Of a stretch of 64,000 nucleotides of DNA, positions 16,348 to 50,906 are shown piece by piece. The notes beneath the pieces were generated by a model. The model ran no database searches, had not been told where the DNA came from, and saw only the letters and a program-made list of their open reading frames with translations. The position numbers and the translations under genes were made by a program. Source of the DNA: Armatimonadota bacterium (GTDB lineage: Bacteria > Vulcanimicrobiota > JACPDS01 > JBDRKI01); the NCBI GenBank assembly GCA_043814095.1, contig JBDRKI010000102.1:15716-79715 (forward strand), read 5' to 3'. The first letter of the stretch is position 1; the number at the start of each line of letters is the position of its first letter.

Positions 16348-17739
16348 TTAACCTAGATTGTAATTGTCTATCAAATAATAAACGGCTTCTATTAACTGGG
16401 CGTCATCATCTTTGCCGAGGTTGGTAGGATCCATTTTTACCGATATATTCGGTTTTATGCCTACGGAGTTTATATCTTTGCCGTCGGGAGTAAAATAATG
16501 CGCCACGGTATATTTAATGGCGCTGTTATCCCTGAATTCGTGGATTTGCTGGACAGACGCTTTACCGAAAGACTGCTCGCCGATTAACATGGCTTTTTTT
16601 GTGTCCTGGAGAGCTCCCGCTGTTATTTCCGAAGCGCTTGCGCTGTATTCATTAATAAGAATAACCACCGGAATATTAACACCGTTCCTGCCGTCTGAAT
16701 AATAGTTTTCTCTTAAATTAGTGCGTTCGTTTATAACAGACACTACAAGCGAACCTCTCGGCAGGAATTTACTGCATACATCCTTGGCGGCGGTTATGTA
16801 TCCTCCGCCGTTATTTCTGAGATCTAATATTAATGCCTGAGCTCCTTTTTCTTTTATTACTTCCAGTGCTTTATTGAATTCGTAATCCGTATTCTCGCCG
16901 AAATACCGCAGTTTTATATATCCTATCTTTTTATTTATCAGCTTGGCCTGTGCGCTCTTTACGTGAATTTTTTCGCGTATAATAACATATTTTTTTATCA
17001 CGCCCTTGCGATCTACTGTTAAAACAACGGAAGACCCCATTTTTCCCCGTATTTTTTGCGCGGCCACCTCAATATCCATGCCCTTGGTCGGTTCGTCATT
17101 TATTTTCAAAATAATGTCCCCGCTTTTTAATCCGGCTTTATACGCGGGGGTGTTTTCTATGGGTTCAATAACGGTAAGCTGATTGTTATTTTTTTTGTCT
17201 GTCTGTATGTATATTCCGACCCCGCCGAAATTTCCCCCTGACATCTGTTCTTTTAATATTTTAAATTCGCCGGGAGTCATTAATAATGTATAAGGATCAT
17301 CATAAGGTGGCTTGGAAAGGATCTCCAGCATGCTGCTTATACACGCGTAAATAAATTTGGATTTATCAACAGACTCTTTATATTTATCAAGCACGCTGTT
17401 GATTCTTTCGGAGAATATGTTCATGTTTTCCCGGGTATCATTCTGTTCGTTTAAAAGAGGTATCTCATCATCCTTAAGCTTTAAAATCTCTTTAAGATAT
17501 TTATTGCCTCCGCGTATTGCCTCATTTAAAAACTGATTGACATTGATGTCTTTTATGTAATCCGATTTCAGAAGTTTTACCGTGTATAATATATCATTGG
17601 AATTTATTGAGCGGGCCTGAGCATGGACTTCATTGTACGCAAAATACGCGACAAACTGGAAAATAAGCAGAATAACCAGTACCATGGATAATTTAAAGCT
17701 TAAAGAGTTATTTTTACGCATATTCCCGCTCCTTTTCAA
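16348..17739 (-). CDS. S41-family C-terminal processing peptidase (CtpA/Prc-like) with a PDZ domain, paralog 1
   Basis: PDZ (GDIILKINDEPTKGM) and S41 catalytic region (LDLRNNGGGY..SASASEI). N-terminal signal/TM segment. Confidence 0.8.
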   Translation of the reverse strand: MKRSGNMRKNNSLSFKLSMVLVILLIFQFVAYFAYNEVHAQARSINSNDILYTVKLLKSDYIKDINVNQFLNEAIRGGNKYLKEILKLKDDEIPLLNEQNDTRENMNIFSERINSVLDKYKESVDKSKFIYACISSMLEILSKPPYDDPYTLLMTPGEFKILKEQMSGGNFGGVGIYIQTDKKNNNQLTVIEPIENTPAYKAGLKSGDIILKINDEPTKGMDIEVAAQKIRGKMGSSVVLTVDRKGVIKKYVIIREKIHVKSAQAKLINKKIGYIKLRYFGENTDYEFNKALEVIKEKGAQALILDLRNNGGGYITAAKDVCSKFLPRGSLVVSVINERTNLRENYYSDGRNGVNIPVVILINEYSASASEITAGALQDTKKAMLIGEQSFGKASVQQIHEFRDNSAIKYTVAHYFTPDGKDINSVGIKPNISVKMDPTNLGKDDDAQLIEAVYYLIDNYNLG

Positions 17740-17789
17740 CTTTTATATTTAAATACTTTGATAAAGTAACTTAAAGTCCTTGCGGAACT

Positions 17790-19136
17790 TTATTTATTTT
17801 TCAAAGCAACAGGTTCTATCTGCTTTTTTAATATTTTTATGGTTTCTTCAAGCTGGACATCGTGTTCGTTTAATATGTCATCTTCGGTAAATTTAATAAC
17901 TATATCGGGTTCAATACCTATTTTATTGATATTTTTGCCTTCCGGAGTGCAGTAATAAGCGGTTGTAAGTTTTATGGCTCCTCCGTCGGGGCTGGGTATT
18001 ATTCTCTGAACAGATGCTTTGCCGAATGTTTTTTCGCCGATAAGCGGCACATTTTTGCTTTTTAAGGCGGCTGCTGTTATTTCTGAGGCGCTAGCACTGT
18101 ATCTGTTTACCAGAATAGCCATGGGCAGAACTTTTCTGGGATTCGGCATGGATTTATATTCATCCCTGGAAACTTTACGGCCTTCTATTGATGTAATCAG
18201 GGTGTTTGTCGGGAGGAATTTACTGCAGACCGAGACAGCCGTTTCTATATAACCGCCGCCGTTATTCCGCAGATCAAGGATATATCCTTTTATATCATTG
18301 CTGTCAAAATAATTCAGGGCTTCTTCAAGTTCATAGGAAGTATCTTCCCCGAAAATATCCAGTTTTATATACCCTATGCTATCATCAATTATTTTATAGC
18401 TTGCGGATTTAATATGAATAAGCGCCCGGGTTAAGGTTGCGTCAAAAGTTTTATCTTCTTTTTTCCTGTAAACGGTTATGTTTACCGTAGATCCGACTTT
18501 GCCCCGTAAGAGGTTCTGAGCTCCTTCTATTGAGATGCCTTCTATGGATTTTCCGTTAACTTTTGTAATTACATCTCCGGATGCAAGACCTGCCTTTTCC
18601 GCAGGAGTACCTTCAAGCGGCCTTACTACGGTTAAGGCGTTGTTATTATCCGGGTCAAGTTCAATAGCTACGCCTAAACCTCCGAAATTGCCGCCTTCCA
18701 TCTGTTCAATAAGCAGTTTGTATTCTTTCGGCGTCATATATTTTGAAAACTGATCGCCTAAAGAATCAACGATACCGCTTATGACCACATCCGTTATATC
18801 CTGATATTTTAAATCTTTGTTCTCGTTAACTGCCGTATTTATATATTCTTTTAAGATTTTGACCTGAGCTTCACTCCCTGTATTTTTATCTAAATCTTTT
18901 ATGTACGAGTAATCTTTCTTATGGAGTGTAAGATATTTCTTAAGGGCGGATATGCCGTTGTTTATAAGTTCCAGCTGGTCTACTTCCGTAACATAATTAT
19001 TTTTTACGATTTCTATCGTATAATTGATTGATTTAAAATTTTGATCCTGCGCGGAATATGTTATTCCACCGGAAAAAATTAACGCGACAAAAATAATTAA
19101 AAAGAAGGCGGCTGTTTTAGATGCTGTTTTATACAT
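17790..19136 (-). CDS. S41-family C-terminal processing peptidase with a PDZ domain, paralog 2
   Basis: Same architecture as the adjacent gene (LDLRNNGGGY, SASASEI). Confidence 0.8.
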   Translation of the reverse strand: MYKTASKTAAFFLIIFVALIFSGGITYSAQDQNFKSINYTIEIVKNNYVTEVDQLELINNGISALKKYLTLHKKDYSYIKDLDKNTGSEAQVKILKEYINTAVNENKDLKYQDITDVVISGIVDSLGDQFSKYMTPKEYKLLIEQMEGGNFGGLGVAIELDPDNNNALTVVRPLEGTPAEKAGLASGDVITKVNGKSIEGISIEGAQNLLRGKVGSTVNITVYRKKEDKTFDATLTRALIHIKSASYKIIDDSIGYIKLDIFGEDTSYELEEALNYFDSNDIKGYILDLRNNGGGYIETAVSVCSKFLPTNTLITSIEGRKVSRDEYKSMPNPRKVLPMAILVNRYSASASEITAAALKSKNVPLIGEKTFGKASVQRIIPSPDGGAIKLTTAYYCTPEGKNINKIGIEPDIVIKFTEDDILNEHDVQLEETIKILKKQIEPVALKNK

Positions 19137-19280
19137 AAATTATTCCTCTTTTCTTATTTCCCGACAAAATATTACTAATATATTTATTAGTAGTATATTA
19201 TACTTATTTATTTCCAATTTTATTCTAACATATAAATATAAAGTACAGTATAGTCCTTTAGACCTATTTTGAAGTAACTG

Positions 19281-19301
19281 AAAAATTCTTAAAAATAAGA
19301 A
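19281..19301 (-). terminator. Small AT hairpin (TTCTTA-AAAA-TAAGAA) plus T-run on the minus strand after the envC-like gene
   Basis: Perfect 6-bp inverted repeat followed by TTTTT on the minus strand. Weak, AT-only stem. Confidence 0.3.
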
Positions 19302-19313
19302 TTTCATTAAAAA

Positions 19314-20516
19314 TCACAATTTACTTCTCGGGTTAATAGGAGTGCCGTTCTGTCTTATTTCAAAGTGAAGGTGAGGCCCTGTGCTCTGGCCTGTGCTTCC
19401 TATATTAGCGATATGCTGGCCTCTTGCAACCCTCTGCCCGCATTTTTTATATAATGCCGAGCAGTGTCCGTAAAGGGTGGAGTATCCGCCTCCGTGATCT
19501 ATAATCATGGCATATCCGTATCCGCCGTACCAGCCTGAAAATATTACGACCCCGTCGCACGCGGCGTATATCGGAGCGCCGTATCCCGCCGCTATGTCAA
19601 TACCCGAGTGAAATCTTACCCTGCCGTAAATTGGATGGGTTCTCCATCCGAAAGGGGATGTGATATATTTTGAGCTTGTGGGCCATGAAAATTTCCCCGA
19701 CGCGGCGTAAGGCGAAGTCACCTTATTCTTAATATTAGCTCTCTGGCGTTCCCTGATCAGCTGTTCAAGCTGGGCTTCCAGCTGTCTTGTGGAATGTTCA
19801 AGCTCTACGACATAATTCTGGACGGACCTTCTTTGCTGGGTTACTTCCCAGAGAAGATTTTTCCGCTGTCTTTCTATGCTTGTTAATTCTTTTTCTTTGC
19901 TGTAAAGCTCGTGTTTAAGCGCTAATTTTTCTTTTATTACGGCTTCGTATCTTGCTTTTTGTTTGTTTTTCTCTTCCTGGACGTTCTGTATCCTTTTAAG
20001 AATGGCCGCTTCATTATTAATGATATCCCTTAGCTGTTCGGACCGGGTTAAAAAATCATTAAAGCTGGCGGAACCTAAAAGGATGGAAAGGTAGTCCACA
20101 TCGCGTGTTTCATAAATATCGCGTATGCGCGTGCTTAATGAGAGCTCTTTCTGGTCTTCGGCCTGCTCAAGGTTTTCCAGCCTTTGTTTTACCTGTTCTA
20201 AAACACGCTTGTTTGCGTCAAGCTGTATTTTAACATGCTCTATATCTTTATTGACCCTGTTTAACCTGTACTGGGCGCTTGCGAGCTGGTCGGCAAGGAA
20301 ATCTTCTCTTGAGTTTAATTTGCGCAGCTGCTGGCGTTTAATATCAAGGTATTTTTTCTTTTCTTTTATCTGCTGGTTTTTTTGTTTTATTTTACTCTCA
20401 ATCGCGTCTTTCTTGCTCGCGGCGTAACAGAAGCAAAAAAGATTGACAAATATAAATGCTGAAAATATCAGCAAAAGTATGATTATTTTTTTGTAATTAA
20501 ATTTTGAATTCTTCAT
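19314..20516 (-). CDS. Coiled-coil M23 (LytM) peptidase, EnvC-like activator/hydrolase
   Basis: N-terminal TM segment, a long coiled coil, and a C-terminal M23 domain (HSGIDIA..HLHFEIR). Located next to ftsEX. Confidence 0.75.
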   Translation of the reverse strand: MKNSKFNYKKIIILLLIFSAFIFVNLFCFCYAASKKDAIESKIKQKNQQIKEKKKYLDIKRQQLRKLNSREDFLADQLASAQYRLNRVNKDIEHVKIQLDANKRVLEQVKQRLENLEQAEDQKELSLSTRIRDIYETRDVDYLSILLGSASFNDFLTRSEQLRDIINNEAAILKRIQNVQEEKNKQKARYEAVIKEKLALKHELYSKEKELTSIERQRKNLLWEVTQQRRSVQNYVVELEHSTRQLEAQLEQLIRERQRANIKNKVTSPYAASGKFSWPTSSKYITSPFGWRTHPIYGRVRFHSGIDIAAGYGAPIYAACDGVVIFSGWYGGYGYAMIIDHGGGYSTLYGHCSALYKKCGQRVARGQHIANIGSTGQSTGPHLHFEIRQNGTPINPRSKL

Positions 20517-20528
20517 AGTTACAATCGT

Positions 20529-21410
20529 TTACAGATGTAAAAATTTATTCACGGAAATAAAGCTGCCGATTGCTCCTACAATTATTCCCACACAGGTAAG
20601 CACAATGGAAAGCTGTGTAATTATAATAGAGGAATGGATAAGCGGTATAAACGGCAGCTGCTGGTGGAACTGGTGGGCAAGCTCCGGATATGTCAGGGAC
20701 ATTATGACAATTGCTATAATTGCCCCTATAAATCCCTGGAGAATGCCTTCTATAATAAACGGCCACCTTATAAACCAGTTAGCGGCGCCTACCAGCTGCA
20801 TTATCCTTATCTCCCTGCTTCTTGCAAAGACGGTTAATCTTATCGTATTACTTACAACAAGTACGTTAACGATAACAAGAAGCAGTATAATAAAAGAACC
20901 TGCGATCTTTATCGCTTTATCAAGCTTTATTATGTTTTCGGTGAAACCCTCACCGTAGTTAACTTTTTCCGTGCCCTGTATTTTTTCTATTAATAAAGCG
21001 GTATCCTTTATCTTGTCTTTATCCTTTACCTTGATTTTAAAATAGTTCGGCAGGGGATTATATTTTAAACTTACAAGGTTTACTTTCTGGACCAATCTTT
21101 CCTGGAGTTCAGAAAGCGCGTGATCTTTACTCACAAAGGAGATTGACGATATATTAGGGAGCCCTTTAAGTTCATTGCGTATTCTTGTTATATCCGCGGG
21201 GGTTACTTGTTTATCAAGCCTTACGGTTATCTCCAGCTGTTCTAAGACAGTTGTGGTTAAAAGACTGTTTAGATTCCATATGAGGATTAAAAACACACCC
21301 AGACTTATAAGCAGTATAAGGATATTGGATATACACGCAAGGTTCATAAGGGGGTTTCTCTGCATGTTCAGCTTTACTTCTCTGAAAAAATAATTTGCTC
21401 CGTAACTCAT
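20529..21410 (-). CDS. ftsX: Cell division permease FtsX
   Basis: 293 aa with four TM helices, a large first extracellular loop and FtsX family conservation. Directly downstream of ftsE. Confidence 0.8.
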   Translation of the reverse strand: MSYGANYFFREVKLNMQRNPLMNLACISNILILLISLGVFLILIWNLNSLLTTTVLEQLEITVRLDKQVTPADITRIRNELKGLPNISSISFVSKDHALSELQERLVQKVNLVSLKYNPLPNYFKIKVKDKDKIKDTALLIEKIQGTEKVNYGEGFTENIIKLDKAIKIAGSFIILLLVIVNVLVVSNTIRLTVFARSREIRIMQLVGAANWFIRWPFIIEGILQGFIGAIIAIVIMSLTYPELAHQFHQQLPFIPLIHSSIIITQLSIVLTCVGIIVGAIGSFISVNKFLHL

Positions 21411-21415
21411 AACAC

Positions 21416-22153
21416 CTACTCAAATATTAATTTTAGATTTTCATATTTATTGTTTGCTTTAGGATCAAATCCTTCCGTTGAATAAGAACTTCTCTCCTGG
21501 TCATCGGTAATTCTGCCAGAAGTTATCGTTACTACTCTTTTTTTCATGAAATCAACAATATCACGGTCATGCGTTGCAATTAATACAGTTGTTCCTTTTG
21601 AGTTTATCCTCTCAAGCAGCATTATAATCTCGCGGGAGGTTACCGGATCAAGATTTCCCGTCGGCTCGTCCGCGATCAGTATAAGGGGGTGGTTAACAAG
21701 CGCCCTTGCTATTGATATGCGCTGGCTCTCCCCTCCGGAAAGCTCGGTAGGGAATGCTTTATGTTTATCACTTAACCCCACAAGGTCAAGAGTATGCCTT
21801 ACAGCCTTATCAATCTGGAATTTAGGAGTACCTATAACCTCAAGCGCGTAAGCCACATTCTCATAAACGGTTTTTTGCGGGAGAAGTTTAAAATCCTGGA
21901 ATACAACACCTATGCTTCTTCTTAAGTAAGGCACCCTGTTTTTCTTTAAGGTAACTACATCCTGGTTGTTCACATATATATGGCCTGATGTGGGAAGCAT
22001 ATCCCTGTAGATAAGCTTAAGGATGGATGATTTTCCCGCGGCAGTTGAGCCCACTATAAAAACAAACTCTCCCTTGTCAACGGAGAAGCTAATGTCTTCA
22101 AGCGCTTTTACGCCGTTAGGGTATATAAGGTTTACATTCTCAAAGCGGATCAT
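21416..22153 (-). CDS. ftsE: Cell division ATP-binding protein FtsE (ABC ATPase)
   Basis: Walker A GSTAAGKSS, ABC signature LSGGESQR and Walker B ILIADEPT. Confidence 0.88.
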   Translation of the reverse strand: MIRFENVNLIYPNGVKALEDISFSVDKGEFVFIVGSTAAGKSSILKLIYRDMLPTSGHIYVNNQDVVTLKKNRVPYLRRSIGVVFQDFKLLPQKTVYENVAYALEVIGTPKFQIDKAVRHTLDLVGLSDKHKAFPTELSGGESQRISIARALVNHPLILIADEPTGNLDPVTSREIIMLLERINSKGTTVLIATHDRDIVDFMKKRVVTITSGRITDDQERSSYSTEGFDPKANNKYENLKLIFE

Positions 22154-22182: not shown

Positions 22183-23277
22183 TCATTTTAACAAGTCCAT
22201 AACAATTTCATTGTTTTTACAGGCTTTCTTTTTCAATGAAGATACATTTTCCTTTAAATTTTTCTTAACCTGTTCATTATTCTTCAATAAGTAATCAAAT
22301 TTTTCATCCATTAAATTCAGTTCCATTCTCTTTATATCCACACTGGGCAGGTTCATAAGTTCAAAAAAGCTCTTAACCTTGGGATCATATATAATTCCCA
22401 AAGAAGGGATACTGTTAACCGCACCCATTATTGCCGCATGGAGTCTCATTGCAGCCATATAATTAAAATTAGAAATTAAACTTAATAACTGCAAAGTAGA
22501 TAATTTCTCATTTATCACAATTGCGTCAAAGACAAGTTTTTCTTTAAGTTTTAAGCACTGTTCAAGATCAGTACTTAACTGGAAGGGCAGTAAGTACTGT
22601 TTTATATCCGGATATTTTTTATTGATATTATTCAAAAAAGAAGCAAGTTTATCCAGATAATCAACACCCCAGGGCCTTACGGCTATACCCAGGTTAACAT
22701 TATCTTTATTTATATCATACTTACTTAAAATGTTAGTTATATCTGTTTGTCCTTCAAGCATAAGCACAGGATCCGCGGTAACTTCTATTAACTTTTCATT
22801 TAGTCCCAGGTTTAATAAAAGCTCCTTAGAAGCTTCATCCCTTACCGTGATATAATCAACCCTGTTTAAGGTTTCAGATGTAAGTTTTTTGCCTTCATCA
22901 GTATCAACAGGGCCTATGCCCTGAGCGTATACCATAACTTTTTTCCTGAAAAGCTTGGCAAGATTTATCAGGTTTAAATAATATCTTATGCTTCTTACGC
23001 TTGTTATATCCTGTATTAAGCCCCCGCCTCCGCTTATAAACAATGTTGTAGTAAACATGGCTTTTAATATTGAAAAATAATTCTTCCTGTTAACAAAATT
23101 TACATTATAATCAGATAATTCATCTATCTTACCGTTAGATAATACGGATATACCCGCTTCAGGCATGAGTTTCCTGAATGAAGTTACCATACTATATAAT
23201 ATGGCTTCATCACCTGCATTACCGAACCCGTAAAATCCCGATATTAATATATTCTTATTTTTATAAGTATTATCCAT
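22183..23277 (-). CDS. Polysaccharide pyruvyl transferase family protein (CsaB-like)
   Basis: N-terminal GFYGFGNAGDEAIL motif characteristic of the pyruvyl transferase family. Confidence 0.65.
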   Translation of the reverse strand: MDNTYKNKNILISGFYGFGNAGDEAILYSMVTSFRKLMPEAGISVLSNGKIDELSDYNVNFVNRKNYFSILKAMFTTTLFISGGGGLIQDITSVRSIRYYLNLINLAKLFRKKVMVYAQGIGPVDTDEGKKLTSETLNRVDYITVRDEASKELLLNLGLNEKLIEVTADPVLMLEGQTDITNILSKYDINKDNVNLGIAVRPWGVDYLDKLASFLNNINKKYPDIKQYLLPFQLSTDLEQCLKLKEKLVFDAIVINEKLSTLQLLSLISNFNYMAAMRLHAAIMGAVNSIPSLGIIYDPKVKSFFELMNLPSVDIKRMELNLMDEKFDYLLKNNEQVKKNLKENVSSLKKKACKNNEIVMDLLK

Positions 23278-23398: not shown

Positions 23399-23662
23399 AT
23401 GGCTGTCAGGAAAAATAGAATTCCCGTAACATTAGAATCTGTATTATATGAATGGATATTAAGTGAAGCCAAGAGACAGGGTATTTCCATTTCCCAGGCA
23501 ATTAGAGATGCCGTAAAGCTTGCATATGAATGGTCTGCCACATTTGAAGTGCTTTCAAGCGAAGAACTTACATTACAGCTCCAGCAGAGCGGCAAAGGTT
23601 CTGCAAAACATTATGTGCCTTTTGATGAGGTAAAGCGTGATGTATACCGCCGTTCTAAGTAA
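23399..23662 (+). CDS. Ribbon-helix-helix (CopG/RHH-type) antitoxin of a type II TA pair
   Basis: 87 aa with an AGGAGG RBS before the ATG at 23399. 3' end overlaps the toxin gene. Confidence 0.6.
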   Translation: MAVRKNRIPVTLESVLYEWILSEAKRQGISISQAIRDAVKLAYEWSATFEVLSSEELTLQLQQSGKGSAKHYVPFDEVKRDVYRRSK

Positions 23663-23897
23663 GCCGTCTGCAAAATATTTGGAAAATTTGCCGTTAAAGC
23701 AGGCTGAATTAATAATTGATAAGGTTGAAGATCTGCGGAGGGAACCTTTTCAAAATTCAATTTCTCTACAGGGACCCTTAAGAGATTTAAGAAGATCAAA
23801 AGCTGGAAAATTCAGGATAATATTTGAATTGGTTGAAAGTAAAAAAGAAATAATAATAAAAGCTATCGGACCAAGAGGCGACATATATAAAAGATAA
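23640..23897 (+). CDS. RelE/ParE-family type II toxin
   Basis: 85 aa with a RelE/ParE-like C-terminal basic region (GPLRDLRRSKAGKFRIIFELV..IIIKAIGPRGDIY). Overlaps the upstream antitoxin. Confidence 0.65.
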   Translation: MYTAVLSKPSAKYLENLPLKQAELIIDKVEDLRREPFQNSISLQGPLRDLRRSKAGKFRIIFELVESKKEIIIKAIGPRGDIYKR

Positions 23898-35943: not shown

Positions 35944-36870
35944 TTACTTCCTCGGATGACTCTTCTTGTAAGTCTCTTCTATATGTTTTAATGAAATATT
36001 AGTATATATCTGTGTAGTAGACAGGTTCTCATGGCCTAAAAGCTCTTTTATGCTCATAAGATCAGCTCCGCCTTCAAGCATATGCGTGGCGAAACTATGC
36101 CTAAGCGTATGAGGGGAGGCATCTTTATTTATCCCTGCCGCCTTTTTATACTTATCGAAAATGTATTCTATCATCCTATCTGAGATACGAACATTTTTTC
36201 TGCTGATGAATAGGGCAGGGGAACTGACTTTCGGCCTTATAGTCAAATAATCTTTTACCGCCTTTTTCGTGGACTCGTTTATAAGGACAAATCTTTCTTT
36301 ATTTCCTTTTCCTCTTACTTTTATAAGCATATTCTCAAAATCTATGCTGTCGTGGTTTATGCTGACAAGCTCGCTTATTCTCAGGCCGGTAGCGTAGAAG
36401 AGCTCAAAAATAGCCTTGTCTCTGATAGAATAGGGATCCCGGGACTCTGCTATTGTCTCAAAGAATTTTTCCATCTCTTCCTTAGTGAGGACATTGGGCA
36501 GCTGCTTGCCCAGTTTGGCGCTCTTTATCTTGGTCATGGACGACTTTTTAACAATCCCTTCAGACTCTAAAAACGCAAAATATGCCTTTAATGTGGCGAT
36601 TTTTCTATTTAGTCCCTTAGGTGAATACTTCTTATCAAGCTTAAGATAGGTCAAGAACTCCCTTACAGTCCTTTCATCTATATCATCAAGAACCATTCCT
36701 TTTTTAATCTGGGGGAGGAAGAATGAGAAAAATATTTTTAAATCATGGGAATATTCTTCTATTGTTCTCGGCGCCAGATTTTCCTCAACGGCCAGATAAT
36801 TAAGAAAGTCTTTTACCAGAAACTCGCGTTCGCGCTCCTTAAACATGTTTTCCACAGAACAATTATCCAC
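35944..36870 (-). CDS. Tyrosine site-specific recombinase of the XerC/XerD type
   Basis: 308 aa with a C-terminal HTLRHSFATHML..LLGH..TTQIYT catalytic region including the Tyr. Confidence 0.85.
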   Translation of the reverse strand: MDNCSVENMFKEREREFLVKDFLNYLAVEENLAPRTIEEYSHDLKIFFSFFLPQIKKGMVLDDIDERTVREFLTYLKLDKKYSPKGLNRKIATLKAYFAFLESEGIVKKSSMTKIKSAKLGKQLPNVLTKEEMEKFFETIAESRDPYSIRDKAIFELFYATGLRISELVSINHDSIDFENMLIKVRGKGNKERFVLINESTKKAVKDYLTIRPKVSSPALFISRKNVRISDRMIEYIFDKYKKAAGINKDASPHTLRHSFATHMLEGGADLMSIKELLGHENLSTTQIYTNISLKHIEETYKKSHPRK

Positions 36871-37204
36871 AGATTTTCACCATCCTTGTTTTTTACTGTT
36901 CGATGCTTTAGGGGAGTATTTCTCTGTCCGGCTCCAATCTCCTCTTTATTCGTCAAAGATATGTTTGTCGAAATTGGGGGAGGGGGATCTGCAGAATAAA
37001 TAACGGCTTGGAATAATGCTTTTTTAGATAAGGGTCTATGGCCCGGGCTTATATGCCCTTATAATGATATAAATAAATATTTCTACATATAATATTACAT
37101 ATAATATAATGATAATTAAGTATCTCTATTCGCCTATTCAAATCTTTAATTAAAATATTTCAGCCCCTTATCTTCCATCCTTAAAATACCACTATACCCT
37201 CCAA

Positions 37205-37295
37205 TACATATATGTCTAAAGGCAAATTTTAAACCCCTTAAAACGCATTTAAATGCGCCGGATTTTTACGGTATTTTACCCCTGCCGGTTTTATA
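37205..37295 (+). repeat. Repeat A copy 1 (ACATATATGTCTAAA..AACCCC.TTAAAA.GCA..TAAATGCG..GGA.TTT..GCCGG..TTTT), intergenic
   Basis: ~60-90-bp element with about 75% identity to copy 2 at 37641. No ORF over 20 aa. Confidence 0.5.
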
Positions 37296-37487
37296 TGATT
37301 TATTAACCCTGTTTCTGTTTTTTTTAATTATTTGATATGTTAACTTATTTTTTGAAAATTAATTTTAATTTGTATTAAATTTATTTTTATGGATATTTTT
37401 TAAAATATATTTTATTGAAGATATAAAAACATACGAATAAATTTTTATGAATATAAACCAGCAGAATGTAAAATAATAAAAATATCA

Positions 37488-37540
37488 ATAGGGGAATTTA
37501 AAAATTTTCAAACTCCCCTATCTGTTTTTGTGTTTTTTCG
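37488..37540. terminator. Hairpin B copy 1 (ATAGGGGAATTT..AAACTCCCCTAT) followed by a T-rich tail
   Basis: 12-bp stem with one mismatch and a 9-nt loop, then TCTGTTTTTGTGTTTTTTCG. Near-identical to copy 2. Confidence 0.5.
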
Positions 37541-37640
37541 TAATGATCTATATTTTCAAATATGACATATCCGGCAAATGCTTGATATATATAGCATTAA
37601 TAGTGATTATCTCTCAGGTTTGATTTTTAATTAAGCGGTA

Positions 37641-37735
37641 TACATATATGCCTAAATCCGGATTTCAACCCCATTAAAAGGCAAATAAATGCGTCAGAAT
37701 TTGGAGCTGATTTCATTTTTCGCCGGCTCGGTTTT
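37641..37735 (+). repeat. Repeat A copy 2
   Basis: TACATATATGCCTAAA..CAACCCCATTAAAAGGCAAATAAATGCGTCAGAATTT..CGCCGGCTCGGTTTTT. Aligns with copy 1. Confidence 0.5.
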
Positions 37736-37772
37736 TGTCTTAAACTTTTATACAGATAATGCAAAAATAATA

Positions 37773-37820
37773 ATAGGGGAATTTATTTTTTTTAAAAAAA
37801 ACTCCCCTATCTGAATTTGT
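37773..37820. terminator. Hairpin B copy 2 (ATAGGGGAATTT..ACTCCCCTAT), probable terminator of the DUF167 gene
   Basis: Same GGGGA/TCCCC stem as copy 1, with an AT loop containing T8A8. Sits 29 nt downstream of the DUF167 stop on the minus strand. Confidence 0.5.
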
Positions 37821-37848
37821 GTATGTTTATGATTTATTTTTTTGTATT

Positions 37849-38133
37849 TTACATGTTCTTTATTTTTTTTATTAAATTTTCTCTGCTAATTTTAATTCCA
37901 ATTAATTTGTTCTGAACGGTTTCGCCTTTTAAAATTATAAGATCGGATTTTCTTATGTCTAATTTTTTTGATAACAGATCTATAACAGCCTTGTTTGCTT
38001 TTCCTTTTTCAGGCGCAGATGTAACTTTAATATAAAATTTGCTATCCCTTAAATCAATCTCGTTTTTCCTTGATTTAGGATTAACCTTAACTTCACAAGT
38101 TACATATTCTTTATATATACCTGTTTTTATCAT
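37849..38133 (-). CDS. DUF167 / YggU-family small protein
   Basis: 94 aa with a V..KVNPKSRKNEI.. signature reminiscent of UPF0235/YggU proteins. Confidence 0.65.
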   Translation of the reverse strand: MIKTGIYKEYVTCEVKVNPKSRKNEIDLRDSKFYIKVTSAPEKGKANKAVIDLLSKKLDIRKSDLIILKGETVQNKLIGIKISRENLIKKIKNM

Positions 38134-38205
38134 TATTTTATCCTTATATCTATATATTTCTTTCTAAGATTAAAAAATCCTTGTTTTATGCAATTTTTTA
38201 CCCCT

Positions 38206-38255
38206 AAAATGTTAACAATTTTGTAACATTTTGGCAATATTTTGGTAACATTACT
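38206..38255 (+). promoter_or_regulatory. Putative operator: imperfect palindrome AAAATGTTAAC-N6-GTAACATTTT followed by GTAACATTTTGG / CAATATTTTGG / TAACATTACTGG direct repeats, upstream of a TATAAT box
   Basis: Seen directly in the sequence. A TATAAT box lies at 38260-38265, and the gene start is at 38305. Confidence 0.35.
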
Positions 38256-38304
38256 GGATTATAATATAGATATAGAAAAAAAAACAGATCCTGGGGGGTA
38301 AAAT

Positions 38305-38757
38305 ATGGGAAGTTTCAATATAATAAATAGTAATATCAGGACAGGTTATACAAGCGCAATGACAAAATTAAGCACCGAGAAAAAGAAACAAAAGGCGGAA
38401 GAAATTTTAAACAAGCTTTCTGATTTAATAAATAAAGGTGTAATAACTACCAAAAATTATGGTTCTCTTAACAGATGTTTAGAAGATTATAACTGCAGGT
38501 TAAGATTTAAACATACCACAGATAACGATTTGCTTGTCGGTTACAGTTATAAGCTGAAGGACGGCGAAGGATATGTATATTATTCATTCAGGAAAAAAAG
38601 TTATGAAGTTTGTTATATAAAACAGGATGGGTATTCTTTCCGCAGAGCCGAAGATTGTGAAAAAAGATCTCTTAATTCAAAAATAGTAGCTACACATTCA
38701 AAACTTGAAAAAGAAGGTGTAATGCAAAGGCTGGAACAAATGGCTAAAAAATATTAA
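38305..38757 (+). CDS. Hypothetical protein (150 aa)
   Basis: ORF with a G-rich RBS (GGGGGGTAAAAT ATG). No recognised family. Its stop overlaps the rnc stop convergently. Confidence 0.5.
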   Translation: MGSFNIINSNIRTGYTSAMTKLSTEKKKQKAEEILNKLSDLINKGVITTKNYGSLNRCLEDYNCRLRFKHTTDNDLLVGYSYKLKDGEGYVYYSFRKKSYEVCYIKQDGYSFRRAEDCEKRSLNSKIVATHSKLEKEGVMQRLEQMAKKY

Positions 38758-39467
38758 TCAAATTTTTCCAGCGCCTGCTTTGCGGCAAGCTGCTCCGCTT
38801 CTTTTTTGGTACTTGATATGCCTTTTCCCAATTTTTTGTCCCTGTGGTAAACCGCTACTTCAAATGTTTTCTGATGAGCGGGTCCAGATTCTTTTAAAGT
38901 TCTGTATTCCGGAAGTTCTTTGTATTTATCCTGGATTTTTTCCTGCAGTATGCTCTTGTAATCAAAATCCTGTGTCATACTTTCTTTTATAATATTTTTA
39001 TAGAAATAAATGACGAATTTATGTGTAATATCTAATCCGGCATCAAGGTATATGGCTCCTATTAAAGCTTCAAAGGCATCTGCAAGGATAGACTGCCGCT
39101 GCCTGCCTCCCCCTGCTTCCTCTCCCCTGCCTAGAAAAAGATAATTTCCCAGTTTTAATTTTTTCGCTATATCAAATAATATACTGCCGCTTACTATACG
39201 TGATTTGCATTTAGAAATATCTCCCACGACAAGTTTTGGGTATTTGTCGTAAAGGTAGCGGGTTATAACAAGGTTAAGGACAGAATCACCTAGAAATTCA
39301 AGTTTTTCGTAACTTAAATTTTTATTTATCTTGTTTTCATAGCAGTAGGATTCGTGTGTAAGCGCCTGAACATATATATCTTTATTGCCGGGCGTAAATC
39401 CGAATTTTTTGCTTAAATATTCCAGCAGCTTATCTTCGGATTTTCTTTTTAATTTATTTTTATTCAA
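38754..39467 (-). CDS. rnc: Ribonuclease III
   Basis: RNase III signature ERLEFLGDSVL and a C-terminal dsRBD. Confidence 0.9.
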   Translation of the reverse strand: MNKNKLKRKSEDKLLEYLSKKFGFTPGNKDIYVQALTHESYCYENKINKNLSYEKLEFLGDSVLNLVITRYLYDKYPKLVVGDISKCKSRIVSGSILFDIAKKLKLGNYLFLGRGEEAGGGRQRQSILADAFEALIGAIYLDAGLDITHKFVIYFYKNIIKESMTQDFDYKSILQEKIQDKYKELPEYRTLKESGPAHQKTFEVAVYHRDKKLGKGISSTKKEAEQLAAKQALEKFD

Positions 39468-39483
39468 AGCCTATCCTTATATC

Positions 39484-40731
39484 TTAATTCGTGTATTTTT
39501 TAAATATTAATACCGCGTTCTGTCCCCCGAACCCGAACGAGTTATTCATGGCGTATTCCATATCTCTTTCCACTGCTTTGTTAGGGGTGTAATTAAGATC
39601 GCATTCAGGATCGGGAGTATCCAGGTTTATTGTCGGCGGCACTATGCCGTTTTTAATGGCCATTGTACATACTATTGATTCCACGGCTCCTGCGGCTCCC
39701 AGGCAGTGTCCGTGCATTGATTTTGTTGAACTTACAGAGAGCTTGGGTGCGTGATCTTTAAATACCATTTTCAGCGCTTTTGTTTCCGCGGGATCGCCTA
39801 CAGGCGTTGCCGTACCGTGTGCGTTTATGTAATCTATTTTATCCGGAGTTATGCCCGCGTTTTTAATGGCGGCATTCATAGCAAGAGATGCGCCCTTTCC
39901 CTCGGGATCAGGCATTGTTATATGATAAGCGTCTTCACTAGCACCGTATCCAACAATTTCTCCGTATATTGTTGCGCCTCTTTTTTTAGCGTGTTCCAGA
40001 TCTTCAAGTATTAGTATGCCGGCGCCTTCGCTCATAACAAAGCCGTCCCTGTCTTTATCAAAAGGACGTGAAGCTTCTTGGGGATTGTCGTTTTTTGTTG
40101 ATAATGCTCTTAAAGCACAGAAACCCGCCACGCTCATAGGAGTTATAGCGGCTTCCGTGCCGCCGGCTATCATAACATCTGCTTCCCCCCTTTTTATAAT
40201 ATGACATGCTTCGCCTATTGAATGAGCGCCTGTCGCGCAGGCTGTCATGATAGATAAATTGGGACCTCTTATACCGAAAAATATGCCCAGCTGTCCGGAG
40301 GCCATATTAGATATCATCATTGGTATAAAGAATGGACTTACTTTGCTGGGTCCTCTTTCAAAGAGTACTCTAAACTGGTTCTCAAGTGTTTCCATACCGC
40401 CTATGCCTGAGCCGACAAGAGCGCCGATTCTGTCGGAGTTTTCTTCATTTATTTCAAGATTTGCGTCAGCAAGAGCTGTTTTTGTCGCGCCTATGGCATA
40501 GTGCAGGAACTTATCCAGTTTACGGATCTCTTTGGGTTGTATATAATCCTGAACATTAAAATCTTTTACCTGCCCCGCAAACTTTGTCGCAAAGTTAGTT
40601 GTATCAAAATATGTTATATCAGATATACCCGACCTTCCGTTAATTAAATTATCCCAGAAAGTATCAATTTTAGAGCCCAGTGATGAAACAATACCCATTC
40701 CTGTTATAACAACTCTTTTGTTGTTCTGCAT
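39484..40731 (-). CDS. fabF: 3-oxoacyl-[acyl-carrier-protein] synthase II (FabF)
   Basis: KAS-II family with the active-site Cys region (TACATG), the HGTATPVGD and GHCLGAAG motifs. 415 aa. Confidence 0.9.
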   Translation of the reverse strand: MQNNKRVVITGMGIVSSLGSKIDTFWDNLINGRSGISDITYFDTTNFATKFAGQVKDFNVQDYIQPKEIRKLDKFLHYAIGATKTALADANLEINEENSDRIGALVGSGIGGMETLENQFRVLFERGPSKVSPFFIPMMISNMASGQLGIFFGIRGPNLSIMTACATGAHSIGEACHIIKRGEADVMIAGGTEAAITPMSVAGFCALRALSTKNDNPQEASRPFDKDRDGFVMSEGAGILILEDLEHAKKRGATIYGEIVGYGASEDAYHITMPDPEGKGASLAMNAAIKNAGITPDKIDYINAHGTATPVGDPAETKALKMVFKDHAPKLSVSSTKSMHGHCLGAAGAVESIVCTMAIKNGIVPPTINLDTPDPECDLNYTPNKAVERDMEYAMNNSFGFGGQNAVLIFKKYTN

Positions 40732-40859
40732 AATTCACCTCATTGTAATAAACTTCACTTTATCTGCTACAAATCATGTTAGAAGGATTAATTTTAAGTT
40801 TACTTAATTCTATAGGTATACTATACTTCCTTCTAAAGATATAATTTAGGCGGTGTTAC

Positions 40860-41837
40860 ATGAAAAAGTACTTAGTTTTAACTATTTTTCTAGTATTTGC
40901 CCTTTCTGTTTTTGTTTACGCTAATAATAGCTTATCCGCGGAAGAATATCAAGTCATACCCAATAATAATGAGATCATCCATGACTGTAATTCCACAGTA
41001 TCTATATTGTTTAATAAATCTTTATTAAATAATATAGAAATTAATAATACTAAAATCTTTCTTAATAGTAAAGAGATATCAAAAAAATGCTTATATAACG
41101 GAAATTCTATAACTTATCTGCCTATTATTTCTCTTCCCGCCGGCATAAATCAGGCAGAGGCCTTTATTGTGTATAAAGACGGCGGAGAAAAATCGGTTAA
41201 ATGGACATTTAATGTGATATCCAAGGATAATATAACTTCTGTAGAGCATGACGCAGTTGATACATTAATTATAAATGAGGATCTGAAAGTAACTATCAAA
41301 GGCATAGAAGGAGCCCGAGCAAGTTTTGACATAGGAGACAAAATAAAGAATATACCTTTAAAGGAAACATCTCCGGGTATCTATGAAGGTGTTTACAAAA
41401 TTAAGCCTATTGATAATTTCGGTTCTGAAGACATAATAGGACACTTAAAATTCAATACAGAACTTGAATCTTCATGCAAAGCCGAGAAGCAGGCTGATAT
41501 AAGGGGTGATTTGTTTCTAGTAAAAATTATTTCTCCGAAACCTGAAGACAGGGTCGGCAAATCATTTGAGATAATCGGCAGGACAAAACCTCATGCCCTT
41601 GTAATGATATCTTCTTTAATGTGGCTTAAAAATATACCTATTGTTAATGAATTAAAAGCAACCACAGGCGGATATGAAGCCAAAGCGGATGAAAACGGTA
41701 TATTTAAAATGAAATACGGTATACCTTTTGAATTAAAAGATTCCACATATACATTAAAGTTTTTAGGGAAGGATGATAAAGGCAATTATTCCATTCCTAA
41801 TACCGTAACTGTAACTACCCGTGGAGGGAAAGACTAA
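40860..41837 (+). CDS. Secreted hypothetical protein with a signal peptide, probably beta-rich / Ig-like
   Basis: N-terminal MKKYLVLTIFLVFALSVFVYA signal sequence. No recognised catalytic motif. Confidence 0.55.
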   Translation: MKKYLVLTIFLVFALSVFVYANNSLSAEEYQVIPNNNEIIHDCNSTVSILFNKSLLNNIEINNTKIFLNSKEISKKCLYNGNSITYLPIISLPAGINQAEAFIVYKDGGEKSVKWTFNVISKDNITSVEHDAVDTLIINEDLKVTIKGIEGARASFDIGDKIKNIPLKETSPGIYEGVYKIKPIDNFGSEDIIGHLKFNTELESSCKAEKQADIRGDLFLVKIISPKPEDRVGKSFEIIGRTKPHALVMISSLMWLKNIPIVNELKATTGGYEAKADENGIFKMKYGIPFELKDSTYTLKFLGKDDKGNYSIPNTVTVTTRGGKD

Positions 41838-42049
41838 TCTCCCCTATCAATTGTTTTTTTTTAAAAAAAATAAATTTATTAACAATTTGTTAATAATCTG
41901 TTAATATAATTATTATATAATTAAACCAAGGAAAATTTTTATATTCTCTTATCAGAATATTTTACCGTCTTTTGAAGCTATACAGGAGAACTCTTTACCT
42001 TTTTTGGAATACAGATTAATTATTTCATAGTTTGTATCTTTAGGAGTTA

Positions 42050-42220
42050 TTATTTCCGCTTTATAAATGCCGTTATTAATTCTTCCCGAATTAATGGGGG
42101 ATTAAGAAAATACTGGGTAACGCCTTTATCCAGAATCTGGCTCTTATAATCTCCTGTGTTATTTGACACCAGAATTGCTCCGGGTTTAATTGCGGCAGAA
42201 TTTACTGGGAAGTTAAGCAT
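42050..42220 (-). CDS. Small hypothetical protein (56 aa) downstream of the 155-aa gene; not in the ORF track
   Basis: Minus-strand ORF MLNFPVNSAAIKPGAILVSNNTGDYKSQILDKGVTQYFLNPPLIREELITAFIKRK with GGAG 9 nt upstream of the ATG. Confidence 0.4.
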   Translation of the reverse strand: MLNFPVNSAAIKPGAILVSNNTGDYKSQILDKGVTQYFLNPPLIREELITAFIKRK

Positions 42221-42250
42221 AATTTATTACTCCGTAAGTATTGGATTATA

Positions 42251-42718
42251 TTAATTTTCTTCTTCTTTAGGTTCTAAAAGCTTTACTCCGTCCTGGATGG
42301 CTTTTAAAAATTCTTCGTGTTTTTCTGATTTTTCTTTATCGGATATTATGCAGTTCAGACATGTAATAAGTTCTTCTTTTTCTTCCGCGGTTACCTGTCT
42401 GTAGCTTTTCTGTTCATATGTACATACAGAAGCTGGGCCTGTTCTGTTAGCAGTCCCTGTATAAGCGTCTTTACTGAAATAAATGTCAGGGTTTTTGAAT
42501 TTTTTGTCTTTTGTCTGTTTGACTATATAATTAAACTTGTCGGATCCCAAAGTAATAGTAAGCTTAACTTCTTTAGTTTTTACGGCGATATTCTTGGTTA
42601 TTACTAAAGTGGCTTTTTTATCGCCTTCTAAATCGTAGTTAATCTGTTCTTTTTTCTCTACGCTGGGCCTGCTATAATATGTACTTGTTGCTCCCTGTGC
42701 AATAATAGTATTGTCCAT
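42251..42718 (-). CDS. Hypothetical protein (155 aa)
   Basis: Charged protein with three Cys. No recognised family. Confidence 0.5.
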   Translation of the reverse strand: MDNTIIAQGATSTYYSRPSVEKKEQINYDLEGDKKATLVITKNIAVKTKEVKLTITLGSDKFNYIVKQTKDKKFKNPDIYFSKDAYTGTANRTGPASVCTYEQKSYRQVTAEEKEELITCLNCIISDKEKSEKHEEFLKAIQDGVKLLEPKEEEN

Positions 42719-42791
42719 TTTTCCCCTCCTTAAAATGATAGCATAGGTAAATTTTATTAATTATTGGCAATAAAGTCAATGGAATACAGGC

Positions 42792-42823
42792 GTGAAAATG
42801 TTAACTTTTTGTTAACTTTTCAC
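42792..42823. promoter_or_regulatory. Putative operator palindrome GTGAAAATGTTAAC-TTTTT-GTTAACTTTTCAC, ~75 bp upstream of the 155-aa gene
   Basis: 13/14-bp inverted repeat. It shares the AAAATGTTAAC core with the site at 38206. Confidence 0.35.
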
Positions 42824-42871
42824 TCCATTAATAAATTATATTAATACTAATTATGTAAAATAAGGGATTTT

Positions 42872-43891
42872 TTACAATAATGATATCTGGCTGTTCTGAG
42901 GTACTTCTAATCCCAAGTGTTCATAAGCGGATATCCCCGCGCATCTGCCTCTTGAAGTTTTGTTTATAAAGCCGAGCTGGATAAGATACGGTTCGTAAAC
43001 CTGTTCAATATTTTCAGACTCTTCATTTACGGCATGTGCTAAAGTTTCTATCCCCACAGGGCCGCCGTTAAATTTTTCTATAATAAAATGCATTATCTTT
43101 ATATCCAGCTCATCCAACCCCTTAGAATCAATCCCTAATTTATAAAGGGAGTCGTTTGCTATGGTAGAATCAATAATACCTGTTTCCGCAACCTGAGCAA
43201 AATCCCTTACTCTTTTAAGAAGGCGGTTTGCGACCCTTGGCGTTCCCCTTGATCTATGGGCTATTATATAGCCGGCATCTTCTTCTACTTCAATATCCAG
43301 TATTCTGCTTGAACGCATAATAATGTCTTTCAGGTTCTCAGGGGAGTAAAAGTCAAGGTTGAAATTTATGCCAAAACGGTTGCGCAAGGGGGAAGTCAGC
43401 ATGCCGGAGCGGGTCGTTGCGCCTATTAAAGTAAATTTAGGAAGCTTTATCTTAGCCGATTTTACGACAGAACTCTGTGATATAACTCTGTCAAAGGTAA
43501 AATCTTCCATTGCCGAATAAAGTATCTCTTCTGTTGCACGGTTTAAACGGTGTATCTCATCTATGAATAAAACATCATTCTCTTTTAAGTTTTTTAAAAG
43601 CACAAGCAGGTCAATTGGTCTTTCAATCGCGGGACCGGATGTTGCTTTTATATCAACACCTATTTCATTGGCAATTATATTTGACAGGGTGGTTTTTCCA
43701 AGGCCCGGAGGCCCGCATAATAATACATGATCAAGAGCTTCCTGCCTCATACCTGCGGCTTTTATGAATACCCTTAAATTTTCTTTGATATTTTCCTGGC
43801 CCACGTATTCATCTAATGTCTGAGGCCGCAAGGAGACTTCAAAATTTGCTTCTTCTTCCCCTCTCGCGGGGGATATGATGCGTTCTTCCAT
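42872..43891 (-). CDS. ruvB: Holliday junction branch migration helicase RuvB
   Basis: AAA+ Walker A GPPGLGKTT, Walker B and sensor motifs. Conserved RuvB throughout. Start probably MEERII at 43891. Confidence 0.92.
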   Translation of the reverse strand: MEERIISPARGEEEANFEVSLRPQTLDEYVGQENIKENLRVFIKAAGMRQEALDHVLLCGPPGLGKTTLSNIIANEIGVDIKATSGPAIERPIDLLVLLKNLKENDVLFIDEIHRLNRATEEILYSAMEDFTFDRVISQSSVVKSAKIKLPKFTLIGATTRSGMLTSPLRNRFGINFNLDFYSPENLKDIIMRSSRILDIEVEEDAGYIIAHRSRGTPRVANRLLKRVRDFAQVAETGIIDSTIANDSLYKLGIDSKGLDELDIKIMHFIIEKFNGGPVGIETLAHAVNEESENIEQVYEPYLIQLGFINKTSRGRCAGISAYEHLGLEVPQNSQISLL

Positions 43892-48588: not shown

Positions 48589-48768
48589 AAAACAGGACTT
48601 TCTTTTAGAAAAAGTTAACAGTAAAATGCTTCCTTATTATAACCCCCTTTCCATTTATGAACGGTTTAGCTGAAAGTGTAATTAGTGTATTTTGAACAGC
48701 GCCTCATATAATTCCATAGTCGGGTGCAAACTCCTTCTTTTTTGTTAAATTTTTAACAAGCAATCTGT

Positions 48769-50737: not shown

Positions 50738-50906
50738 AGGCGCCTCCGTATTAAATTAAGTTCTTCTCAGGCTTTCTTTTTATTATAATACTCTTGAGGC
50801 TATTTTTTGTCAATAAATTTATATTTTTTCTTTGAAATAAAAAAGGATTTGTATTAAATAAGGGGAATATATTTATGTTAAATAAATGTTAAAGGGGGCT
50901 AAACTT

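Follow-up and report, generated by a model that had tools for sequence, protein, structure and literature searches.

Head-to-tail TGTTAA repeats with an 11-bp period upstream of ORFan genes in an Armatimonadota genome: candidate sites of an OmpR/PhoB-family response regulator

We analyzed a 64-kb stretch of DNA (the window) that is part of a 148-kb contig of an NCBI metagenome-assembled genome (MAG) labelled 'Armatimonadota bacterium', with a GC (guanine plus cytosine) content of 38%. An initial annotation of this stretch had pointed to two sites, upstream of two uncharacterised gene units, which share an exact 11-mer and a palindromic, GTTAAC-centred architecture, and had ascribed them to a common dimeric regulator. 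A common DNA-binding regulator is also our best explanation for these two sites. What we observed, however, is a direct repeat, i.e., the hexamer TGTTAA (core GTTAA) arranged head to tail with an 11-bp period and A/T-rich spacers, which is enriched in the window, lies outside genes in all of its exact copies, and is kept at the orthologous position of one relative. The binding of phased direct repeats by winged-helix response regulators is textbook knowledge, and proteins of the OmpR/PhoB family bind head to tail as dimers or longer arrays. By analogy, we infer with moderate confidence that the repeats are sites of a response regulator of this family, because the hexamers stand head to tail one helical turn apart and their consensus coincides with the sites of WalR, SaeR, and PhoP. 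The two sites of the initial annotation, with the promoter elements and genes that belong to them, are:

38206-38257, plus strand: site 1, four hexamers at exact 11-bp steps
38260-38265, plus strand: perfect TATAAT -10 box of the 150-amino-acid (150-aa) gene, read from the sequence (ATG at 38305)
38305-38757, plus strand: 150-aa ORFan gene ABIH00_09905, presumed target of site 1
37849-38133, minus strand: DUF167 (YggU) gene, divergent from the 150-aa gene (Pfam PF02594, E = 6e-19)
42792-42823, plus strand: site 2, GTGAAAATGTTAAC-TTTTT-GTTAACTTTTCAC
42751-42779, minus strand: sigma-70-type promoter match TTGACT-17-TAAAAT of the 155-aa gene, from a promoter scan
42251-42718, minus strand: 155-aa ORFan gene ABIH00_09930, presumed target of site 2
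42050-42220, minus strand: 56-aa open reading frame (ORF) after the 155-aa gene, presumed target of site 2

The sequence described by the initial annotation at site 1, including the TATAAT box, was present as given. The site is composed of AAAATGTTAAC (38206-38216), AATTTT (38217-38222), and GTAACATTTT (38223-38232), which had been described as an imperfect palindrome followed by helically phased direct repeats. The phased repeats were borne out, with hexamers at exact 11-bp steps. The arms of the palindrome are also present, but their pairing requires an indel of 1 nt (GTTAAC vs GT-AAC), and the array runs on as four units of one orientation, i.e., TTAACA (38212-38217), GTAACA (38223-38228), GCAATA (38234-38239), and GTAACA (38245-38250), which read TGTTAC-TATTGC-TGTTAC-TGTTAA on the minus strand. 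The imperfect palindrome corresponds to the first two units together with the flanking AAAA/TTTT. With a weight matrix that was built without site 1, this site was the top-scoring four-unit 11-bp array of the window, with a score of 22.7, whereas the highest score in 40 Markov shuffles was 15.1. The genes flanking this intergenic site are divergent, so that site 1 is also placed 73-120 bp upstream of the start of the minus-strand DUF167 gene, and its hairpin fold is weak (-9.5 kcal/mol). Its promoter has no usable -35 box, the nearest resemblances being TTGGCA at 23 bp and TTGGTA at 12 bp.

The 155-aa gene on the minus strand starts at 42718, and site 2 is located 74-105 bp upstream of it. As measured, both sites are promoter-proximal and stand 73-105 bp before the start codons, in agreement with the earlier statement of about 75-100 bp. 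In site 2, the 11-mer TGTTAACTTTT stands twice in tandem without any change (42799-42809 and 42810-42820), reading TTAACA-AAAAG-TTAACA in the orientation of the 155-aa gene, and the site is at the same time a near-perfect palindrome with 13-bp arms (GTGAAAATGTTAAC and GTTAACTTTTCAC). It can be both because GTTAAC is self-complementary, with the flanks GTGAAAA/TTTTCAC adding to the symmetry. As a hairpin, site 2 reaches -15.6 to -16.4 kcal/mol (z = -5.7 to -6.4). When sites 1 and 2 are read in the orientation of their downstream genes, both are of the TTAACA-N5-TTAACA type and they align without gaps at 17 of 24 positions.

The initial annotation had limited the motif to these two gene units, but equally good sites occur at two further places, and a doubtful one at a third. 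Together with a lone hexamer discussed below, these are:

41877-41904, plus strand: site 3, TTAACA-ATT-TGTTAA-TAATC-TGTTAA, three hexamers
50876-50892, plus strand: site 4, TGTTAA-ATAAA-TGTTAA, exact direct repeat without palindromic symmetry
22188-22204, minus strand: site 5 (doubtful), TGTTAT-GGACT-TGTTAA followed by TGATATAAT, 35-51 bp upstream of ftsE
37337-37346, plus strand: lone hexamer ATGTTAACTT, inside a 978-bp non-coding region, with no partner at +/-11 bp

At site 3, TGTTAA-N5-TGTTAA (41888-41904) and the palindrome TTAAC-N5-GTTAA (41879-41893) are both present in exact form. The site is preceded by the terminator-like end of a 325-aa gene and directly followed by TATAAT (41905-41910); no plus-strand ORF was found downstream of it, and a structured RNA at that place had no support from folding (z-score -0.7). 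Directly after site 4 come the Shine-Dalgarno sequence AGGGGG and, at 50907, what is probably the ATG of a gene for a zinc-ribbon protein; the site is 139 bp from the start of the divergent scpB, and the only ATG that it overlaps, at 50886, is probably not a real start.

The 11-mer AAAATGTTAAC occurs exactly twice in the 64 kb (38206 and 42795) vs 0.09 copies expected, and none of 100 shuffles reached two copies, which upholds the earlier observation: the motif shared by sites 1 and 2 is real and non-random. The same 11-mer with one mismatch was not enriched (7 vs 3.9 expected). The palindrome had been taken as the unifying feature of the sites; it is rather the TGTTAA/TTAACA direct repeat with an 11-bp period that emerged at the top of an unbiased hexamer-by-spacing scan (spacings 0-20, 77,700 tests), in which TGTTAA-N5 ranked first (p = 7e-6). 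Exact TGTTAA-N5-TGTTAA is found in three copies (41888, 42799, and 50876) vs 0.04 expected, all of them outside genes, and a scan of spacings 0-22 returned exact TGTTAA pairs at N5 only. The degenerate form TGTWAH-N5-TGTWAH is found six times vs 0.44 expected, adding to the exact three site 1 (38212-38228, minus strand), 22188-22204, and one copy inside the DUF167 gene, while GTTAA-N6-GTTAA is found at three loci (41889, 42800, and 50877) vs about 0.4 expected. In intergenic DNA alone, under a Markov null, there were two exact copies vs 0.002 expected and three degenerate ones vs 0.06, counts that none of 3000 simulations reached. Matches to the weight matrix numbered 8 in the window vs 1.5 per 64 kb in AT-rich control loci totalling 262 kb, and exact TGTTAA-N5-TGTTAA was absent from 44 unrelated RuvB loci. 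The single hexamers TGTTAA and GTTAAC (the latter with 21 observed vs 15 expected) are not enriched, and the signal therefore lies in the phasing. The GTTAAC counts likewise gave no signal of avoidance or enrichment by an HpaI-type restriction-modification system.

At three sites, the repeats also keep a common register relative to promoter-like elements. The distance from the start of a unit to the first base of the -10 is 48 bp for unit 1 of site 1, 48 bp for unit 2 of site 2, and 49 bp for unit 1 of the site found in the relative L046 (see below); across these three sites, the units begin 59, 48-49, and 37-38 bp before the -10-like box. Site 2 lies 19 bp upstream of the TTGACT-17-TAAAAT match, whereas site 1 and the L046 site are combined with a strong -10 (TATAAT and TGGTATAAT, respectively) and no -35 box. 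Sites 3 and 4, on the other hand, abut a -10-like box or a Shine-Dalgarno sequence in the TGTTAA reading direction. The direction of regulation is suggested by this placement. Sites 1, 2, and that of L046 would be activating, because they stand upstream of the promoter, in a common register, next to a weak or absent -35. TTAACA units in such a register upstream of the -10 would correspond to the geometry of an activator-dependent promoter, and at sites 1 and 2 the ORFan genes might then be transcribed by RNA polymerase that a phosphorylated regulator has recruited. A repressing role would fall to sites 3 and 4, because the repeats abut the -10-like box or the ribosome-binding site, and TGTTAA repeats bound there may occlude the promoter.

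The MAG has no close relatives, its RuvB being at most 78% identical to anything found. At the orthologous place, the motif is kept in one diverged relative, L046 (RuvB 68% identical, 39% GC), which has the same aspS-yebC-ruvCAB gene order. Downstream of its ruvB stands TTTACAAAAAGTTAACA, identical to site 2 in 17 of 18 bases including the spacer, followed by the extended -10 TGGTATAAT. This site retains an 8-bp imperfect inverted repeat with AU-rich pairs and one mismatch, so that the primary sequence rather than the strength of a stem has been kept. After this site, of the form TTTACA-N5-TTAACA, and its -10, positions 4558-4620 of L046 contain two hairpins, the terminator-like GGCCTT...AAGGCC, and then TTTTATTT, before the end of the contig at 4645. 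A short RNA or a leader could be encoded here. In L001, a 'Candidatus Xenobia' MAG with 65% GC, the AT-rich TGTTACCGGCGTGTTAA (8138-8154) is the sole match in 21 kb, situated 41-57 bp upstream of ruvC between divergent genes and without palindromic symmetry. The loci L049/L050 and L131 were not treated as relatives, as the gene order around ruvB differs there (SpoIID and queuosine genes follow).

The symmetry of some of the sites allows a different interpretation, in which sites 1 and 2 are palindromic operators (core TTAAC-N5-GTTAA with AAAA/TTTT flanks) of a symmetric dimeric helix-turn-helix regulator. Such a protein would probably repress the adjacent ORFan genes and would possibly be distinct from the binder of the non-palindromic sites. 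We regard this as possible but doubtful. The 13-bp arms of site 2, with one indel, give a stable fold, and their outer GTGAAAA/TTTTCAC symmetry does not follow from a tandem repeat. The core TTAAC-N5-GTTAA is exact at sites 2 and 3 (two copies vs about 0.2 expected), the imperfect inverted repeat of L046 is in line with it, and TGTTAAC-N3-9-GTWAAC has one match vs 0.02 expected. However, since GTTAAC is self-complementary, repeating it directly necessarily creates an inverted repeat as well, whereas site 4 and the site of L001 are exact or near-exact direct repeats without any symmetry. Sites 1 and 2 need a gap to be aligned as palindromes and none as direct repeats, the indel at site 1 is followed by a continuation in one orientation and in exact 11-bp register, and the position of sites 1, 2, and that of L046 upstream of the -35 is unusual for a simple repressor. 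The GTTAAC-centred palindromic architecture of the initial annotation is thus retained in the form of near-palindromes at sites 1 and 2, but these are largely a consequence of the self-complementary GTTAAC, and the architecture is absent at 50876 and in L001. In the same way, the shared regulator that had been proposed is likely, although the symmetric palindrome meant to account for a dimer is not common to all sites (site 4 and L001).

The stable fold of site 2 could also mean that the sites act as RNA or DNA hairpins; site 2 would then terminate the ruvB transcript or form its 3' stem-loop, and similar structures would be found at the other sites. Site 2 begins 48 nt after the ruvB stop, the fold on the ruvB strand (-15.6 kcal/mol) was equalled by none of 200 shuffles, and ruvB of the closest relative, L045, is followed by another hairpin, which is GC-rich. 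We nevertheless consider hairpins very unlikely to explain the sites, site 2 being the only plausible case. Site 2 is A/U-rich, lacks a U-tract, and was not called in a terminator scan; site 1, with its weak fold, lies between divergent genes, where no transcript ends; site 4 is unable to form a hairpin; and L046 has kept the primary sequence instead of the stem strength.

Several observations weigh against an OmpR/PhoB-family regulator as the binder. A pure direct-repeat model leaves the seven additional symmetric bases of site 2 (GTGAAAA/TTTTCAC) unexplained, and sites 1, 2, 3, and that of L046 can be written equally well as inverted repeats TTAAC-N5-GTTAA. No gene for a response regulator or a kinase is present within the window. 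The -10 boxes used in the register argument are consensus matches and not mapped transcription starts. Among the relatives, L047, L048, L132 (62% GC), and L066 have no site; neither does L045, where only 74 bp follow ruvB and the result is uninformative. Four sites in 13 kb are about 20 times denser than the exact intergenic matches to the WalR consensus in Clostridioides difficile, 29 per genome (PMC9210968), which is odd for a specific regulon. Finally, after full Bonferroni correction the exact dyad has p of about 0.3-0.5 and is not significant alone, so that significance rests on the exact dyad, its intergenic location, the near-matches, and the conservation together.

The last of these points also speaks for chance, i.e., for AT-rich, promoter-related sequence in which promoter-like hexamers overlap or slippage has produced duplications, without any dedicated binder. 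TTAACA is one mismatch away from the -35 box TTGACA, TGTTAAnAT resembles an extended -10, and a promoter match, TTAACA-17-TAATAT preceded by TG, is present at site 3. Promoter-like matches number 41 vs 26.5 expected in 36800-43000, the 11-mer is not enriched once a mismatch is allowed, site 5 appears to be a by-product of coding, and most relatives are without the motif. This explanation is still unlikely in our view, since promoter elements predict no 11-bp spacing of identical hexamers and only N5 is enriched, since the intergenic simulations never reached the observed counts and the array of site 1 lies far above its null, and since 17 of 18 bases, including the spacer, are kept at the orthologous position of L046 with a RuvB that is just 68% identical.

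Site 4 raises one more possibility, namely Xer/dif-type recombination sites, as the window encodes an XerC/D-like tyrosine recombinase (35944-36870) and the exact 11-mer TTATGTTAAAT at 50873-50883, in site 4, is identical to the XerD arm of Escherichia coli dif. The remaining parts of a dif site are absent there. A dif site is a 28-bp, single-copy sequence with XerC and XerD arms around a 6-bp centre, located at the switch in skew. That the repeats are of this kind seems extremely improbable. The pattern TTATGTWAANT has two matches vs 1.05 expected, which is chance level, and the would-be XerC arm AAATAAGGGGA is without the inner ATAA symmetry. The GC skew follows the gene strand and does not switch at 50.9 kb, the hexamers of sites 2 and 3 are 3 bp apart in the everted sense vs about 12 bp in dif, and there are several sites here whereas dif is single-copy.

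Site 5, for which we retain the word doubtful, precedes an ftsE-ftsX-M23(PcsB-like)-ctpA operon and lies within the last 7 codons of the pyruvyl-transferase gene. It is probably a by-product of coding, because in L066, a relative found by a metagenome scan with FtsX (68% identical), the C-terminal codons are conserved without the motif or a -10 box; the equivalent codons there read TGTAAAGCAATTATTGA, which is partly similar, and no -10 box follows. The operon itself (16348-22153, minus strand) encodes FtsE, an FtsX that has an extracellular domain, an M23 peptidase carrying a coiled coil of the PcsB type, and two CtpA-like proteases of the S41 family; it is a cell-wall hydrolase module of the FtsEX-PcsB kind, here in a MAG with the label Armatimonadota. 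The pyruvyl-transferase gene is separated from the helicase/ligase genes by a ParE-family toxin-like gene (PF05016, E = 1e-5) at 23637-23897 on the plus strand. Two further sequences stand near gdh. At 48604-48620, 70-86 bp upstream of this gene, TTTAGAAAAAGTTAACA contains AAAAG-TTAACA as at site 2 and in L046, and at 48741-48758, between a rimO-like gene and gdh, there is a perfect 8-bp inverted repeat, TTGTTAAA-TT-TTTAACAA. The two may represent sites of the same factor that are weaker or arranged in another way.

The initial annotation had counted a third half-site near 37336. The sequence ATGTTAACTT is indeed there, but it is a single hexamer without a phased partner and by itself not above chance. 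The 978-bp gene-free stretch around it, which adjoins the xerC/D-like recombinase gene, contains two paralogous non-coding elements (37204-37538 and 37640-37827, plus strand) with a common 5' part of about 110 nt (ATACATATATGyCTAAA...TAAATGCG...GCCGG), each with a terminal GGGGA/TCCCC hairpin of 16 bp that has T-runs (37487-37522 and 37773-37811). These paired elements could be small RNA genes. Rfam had no match to the window, to 36850-38320, or to the sequence that follows the L046 site.

The gene neighborhood is of a housekeeping type, with the xerC/D-like recombinase, DUF167, rnc, and fabF, followed by ruvB-ruvA-ruvC-yebC-aspS-gdh on the minus strand, and the genes for the 150-aa, 155-aa, 56-aa, and 325-aa proteins are interleaved with these. 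None of the four proteins had a match above threshold in Pfam, NCBIfam, or PHROG. In a search against 5.8 billion proteins, the 150-aa and 155-aa proteins each matched only themselves, and a full HMMER search with the 150-aa protein gave nothing beyond weak matches to TPR-repeat proteins. The two are not paralogues of each other, and their single-sequence AlphaFold2 (AF2) models, with a predicted local distance difference test (pLDDT) score of 57 for the 150-aa and 50 for the 155-aa protein, are too poor for a fold search. On visual inspection, the 56-aa ORF (...GAILVSNN...DKGVTQYFLNPPLIREEL...) has a speculative likeness to a receiver domain, namely to its C-terminal half.

If the repeats are the sites of a response regulator, a little-studied lineage without cultured members would gain a concrete cis-element (TGTTAA-N5-TGTTAA, 2-4 units) that is of use in annotating this genome. 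The regulon that we infer from the sites could then be delimited in a complete MAG, and an orphan response regulator could be paired with its targets. Co-regulation of the genes for the 150-aa, 155-aa, 56-aa, and zinc-ribbon proteins would offer an initial clue to the function of homologue-less proteins. A more far-reaching idea, which we put forward tentatively and rate as rather improbable, is that of an uncharacterised, lineage-specific global regulator in an uncultured, deep-branching clade (Armatimonadota/'Xenobia'-related). Its helically phased (T)GTTAA sites would be unusually dense (locally about 1 per 3 kb) and would switch on sets of ORFan genes interleaved with housekeeping operons, and one of them would have been kept beside the ruvCAB operon across a RuvB identity of 60-68%, even in a genome with 65% GC.

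Among known systems, the sites resemble first of all those of WalR (YycF/VicR) of the Firmicutes. WalR-activated genes have their sites upstream of the promoter and WalR-repressed genes have sites that overlap it, and the sites described here are likewise found both upstream of and overlapping promoter matches. They have the same 11-bp head-to-tail geometry. The WalR consensus TGTWAH-N5-TGTWAH (PMC9210968) is matched by sites 2, 3, and 4 with exact repeats, while site 1 (minus strand), site 5, and the sites of L046 and L001 fit it in its degenerate form. Unlike in WalR systems, the host is labelled Armatimonadota and is not a Firmicute, and the targets are ORFan genes instead of cell-wall hydrolases, the sole cell-wall-related site (that of the ftsEX-M23 operon) being the doubtful one. 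No walRK genes were seen in the window, and site 1 has four units.

The SaeR site of Staphylococcus aureus, GTTAAN6GTTAA with an A/T-rich spacer (PMC5083920), is found exactly at sites 2, 3, and 4, whose spacers are A/T-rich as well, and here too direct repeats would serve a winged-helix regulator of the OmpR family. SaeR, however, belongs to a staphylococcal virulence system without phylogenetic or functional link to this MAG, and the unit found here extends to TGTTAA and occurs in arrays of 3-4 units. In Bacillus subtilis, PhoP-activated promoters carry four TT(A/T/C)ACA repeats at about -60 to -20. This is closely matched by site 1, with four TTAACA-like hexamers of 11-bp period at about -60 to -22 of a good -10 and no -35. 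Arrays of 11-nt direct repeat units are also known for PhoP of Streptomyces (PMC2275107). In contrast to PhoP systems, phosphate genes (pst, phoU, phoR, phosphatases) are absent from the window and from the neighborhoods of the sites.

Operators of dimeric helix-turn-helix repressors are similar to sites 1 and 2 as imperfect, promoter-proximal inverted repeats with arms of 10-13 bp and a spacer of 5-6 bp. They differ in that symmetry is absent at site 4 and in L001, that the repeat of site 1 continues one way, and that sites 1, 2, and that of L046 lie upstream of the -35 position and not over the core promoter. Other candidates, whose consensus sequences were compared by eye, were rejected: the arms of a Rex/CRP-type GTGAA...TTCAC are too far apart at 22 bp, the spacing is too short for BirA, a sigma-54 -24/-12 element at TGGCAA...TTGGTA lacks the GC at -12, and LexA, CodY, and LytTR (with a 21-bp period) do not fit.

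Overall, the regulator is not WalR, SaeR, or PhoP itself, because the MAG is labelled Armatimonadota and the neighboring genes do not fit the regulons of these proteins. In practical terms, what looks like a GTTAAC-centred 'palindrome' can turn out to be a direct repeat. The mechanism proposed here would be unsurprising and leaves current understanding unchallenged, as its consensus overlaps with those already described for WalR, SaeR, and PhoP.

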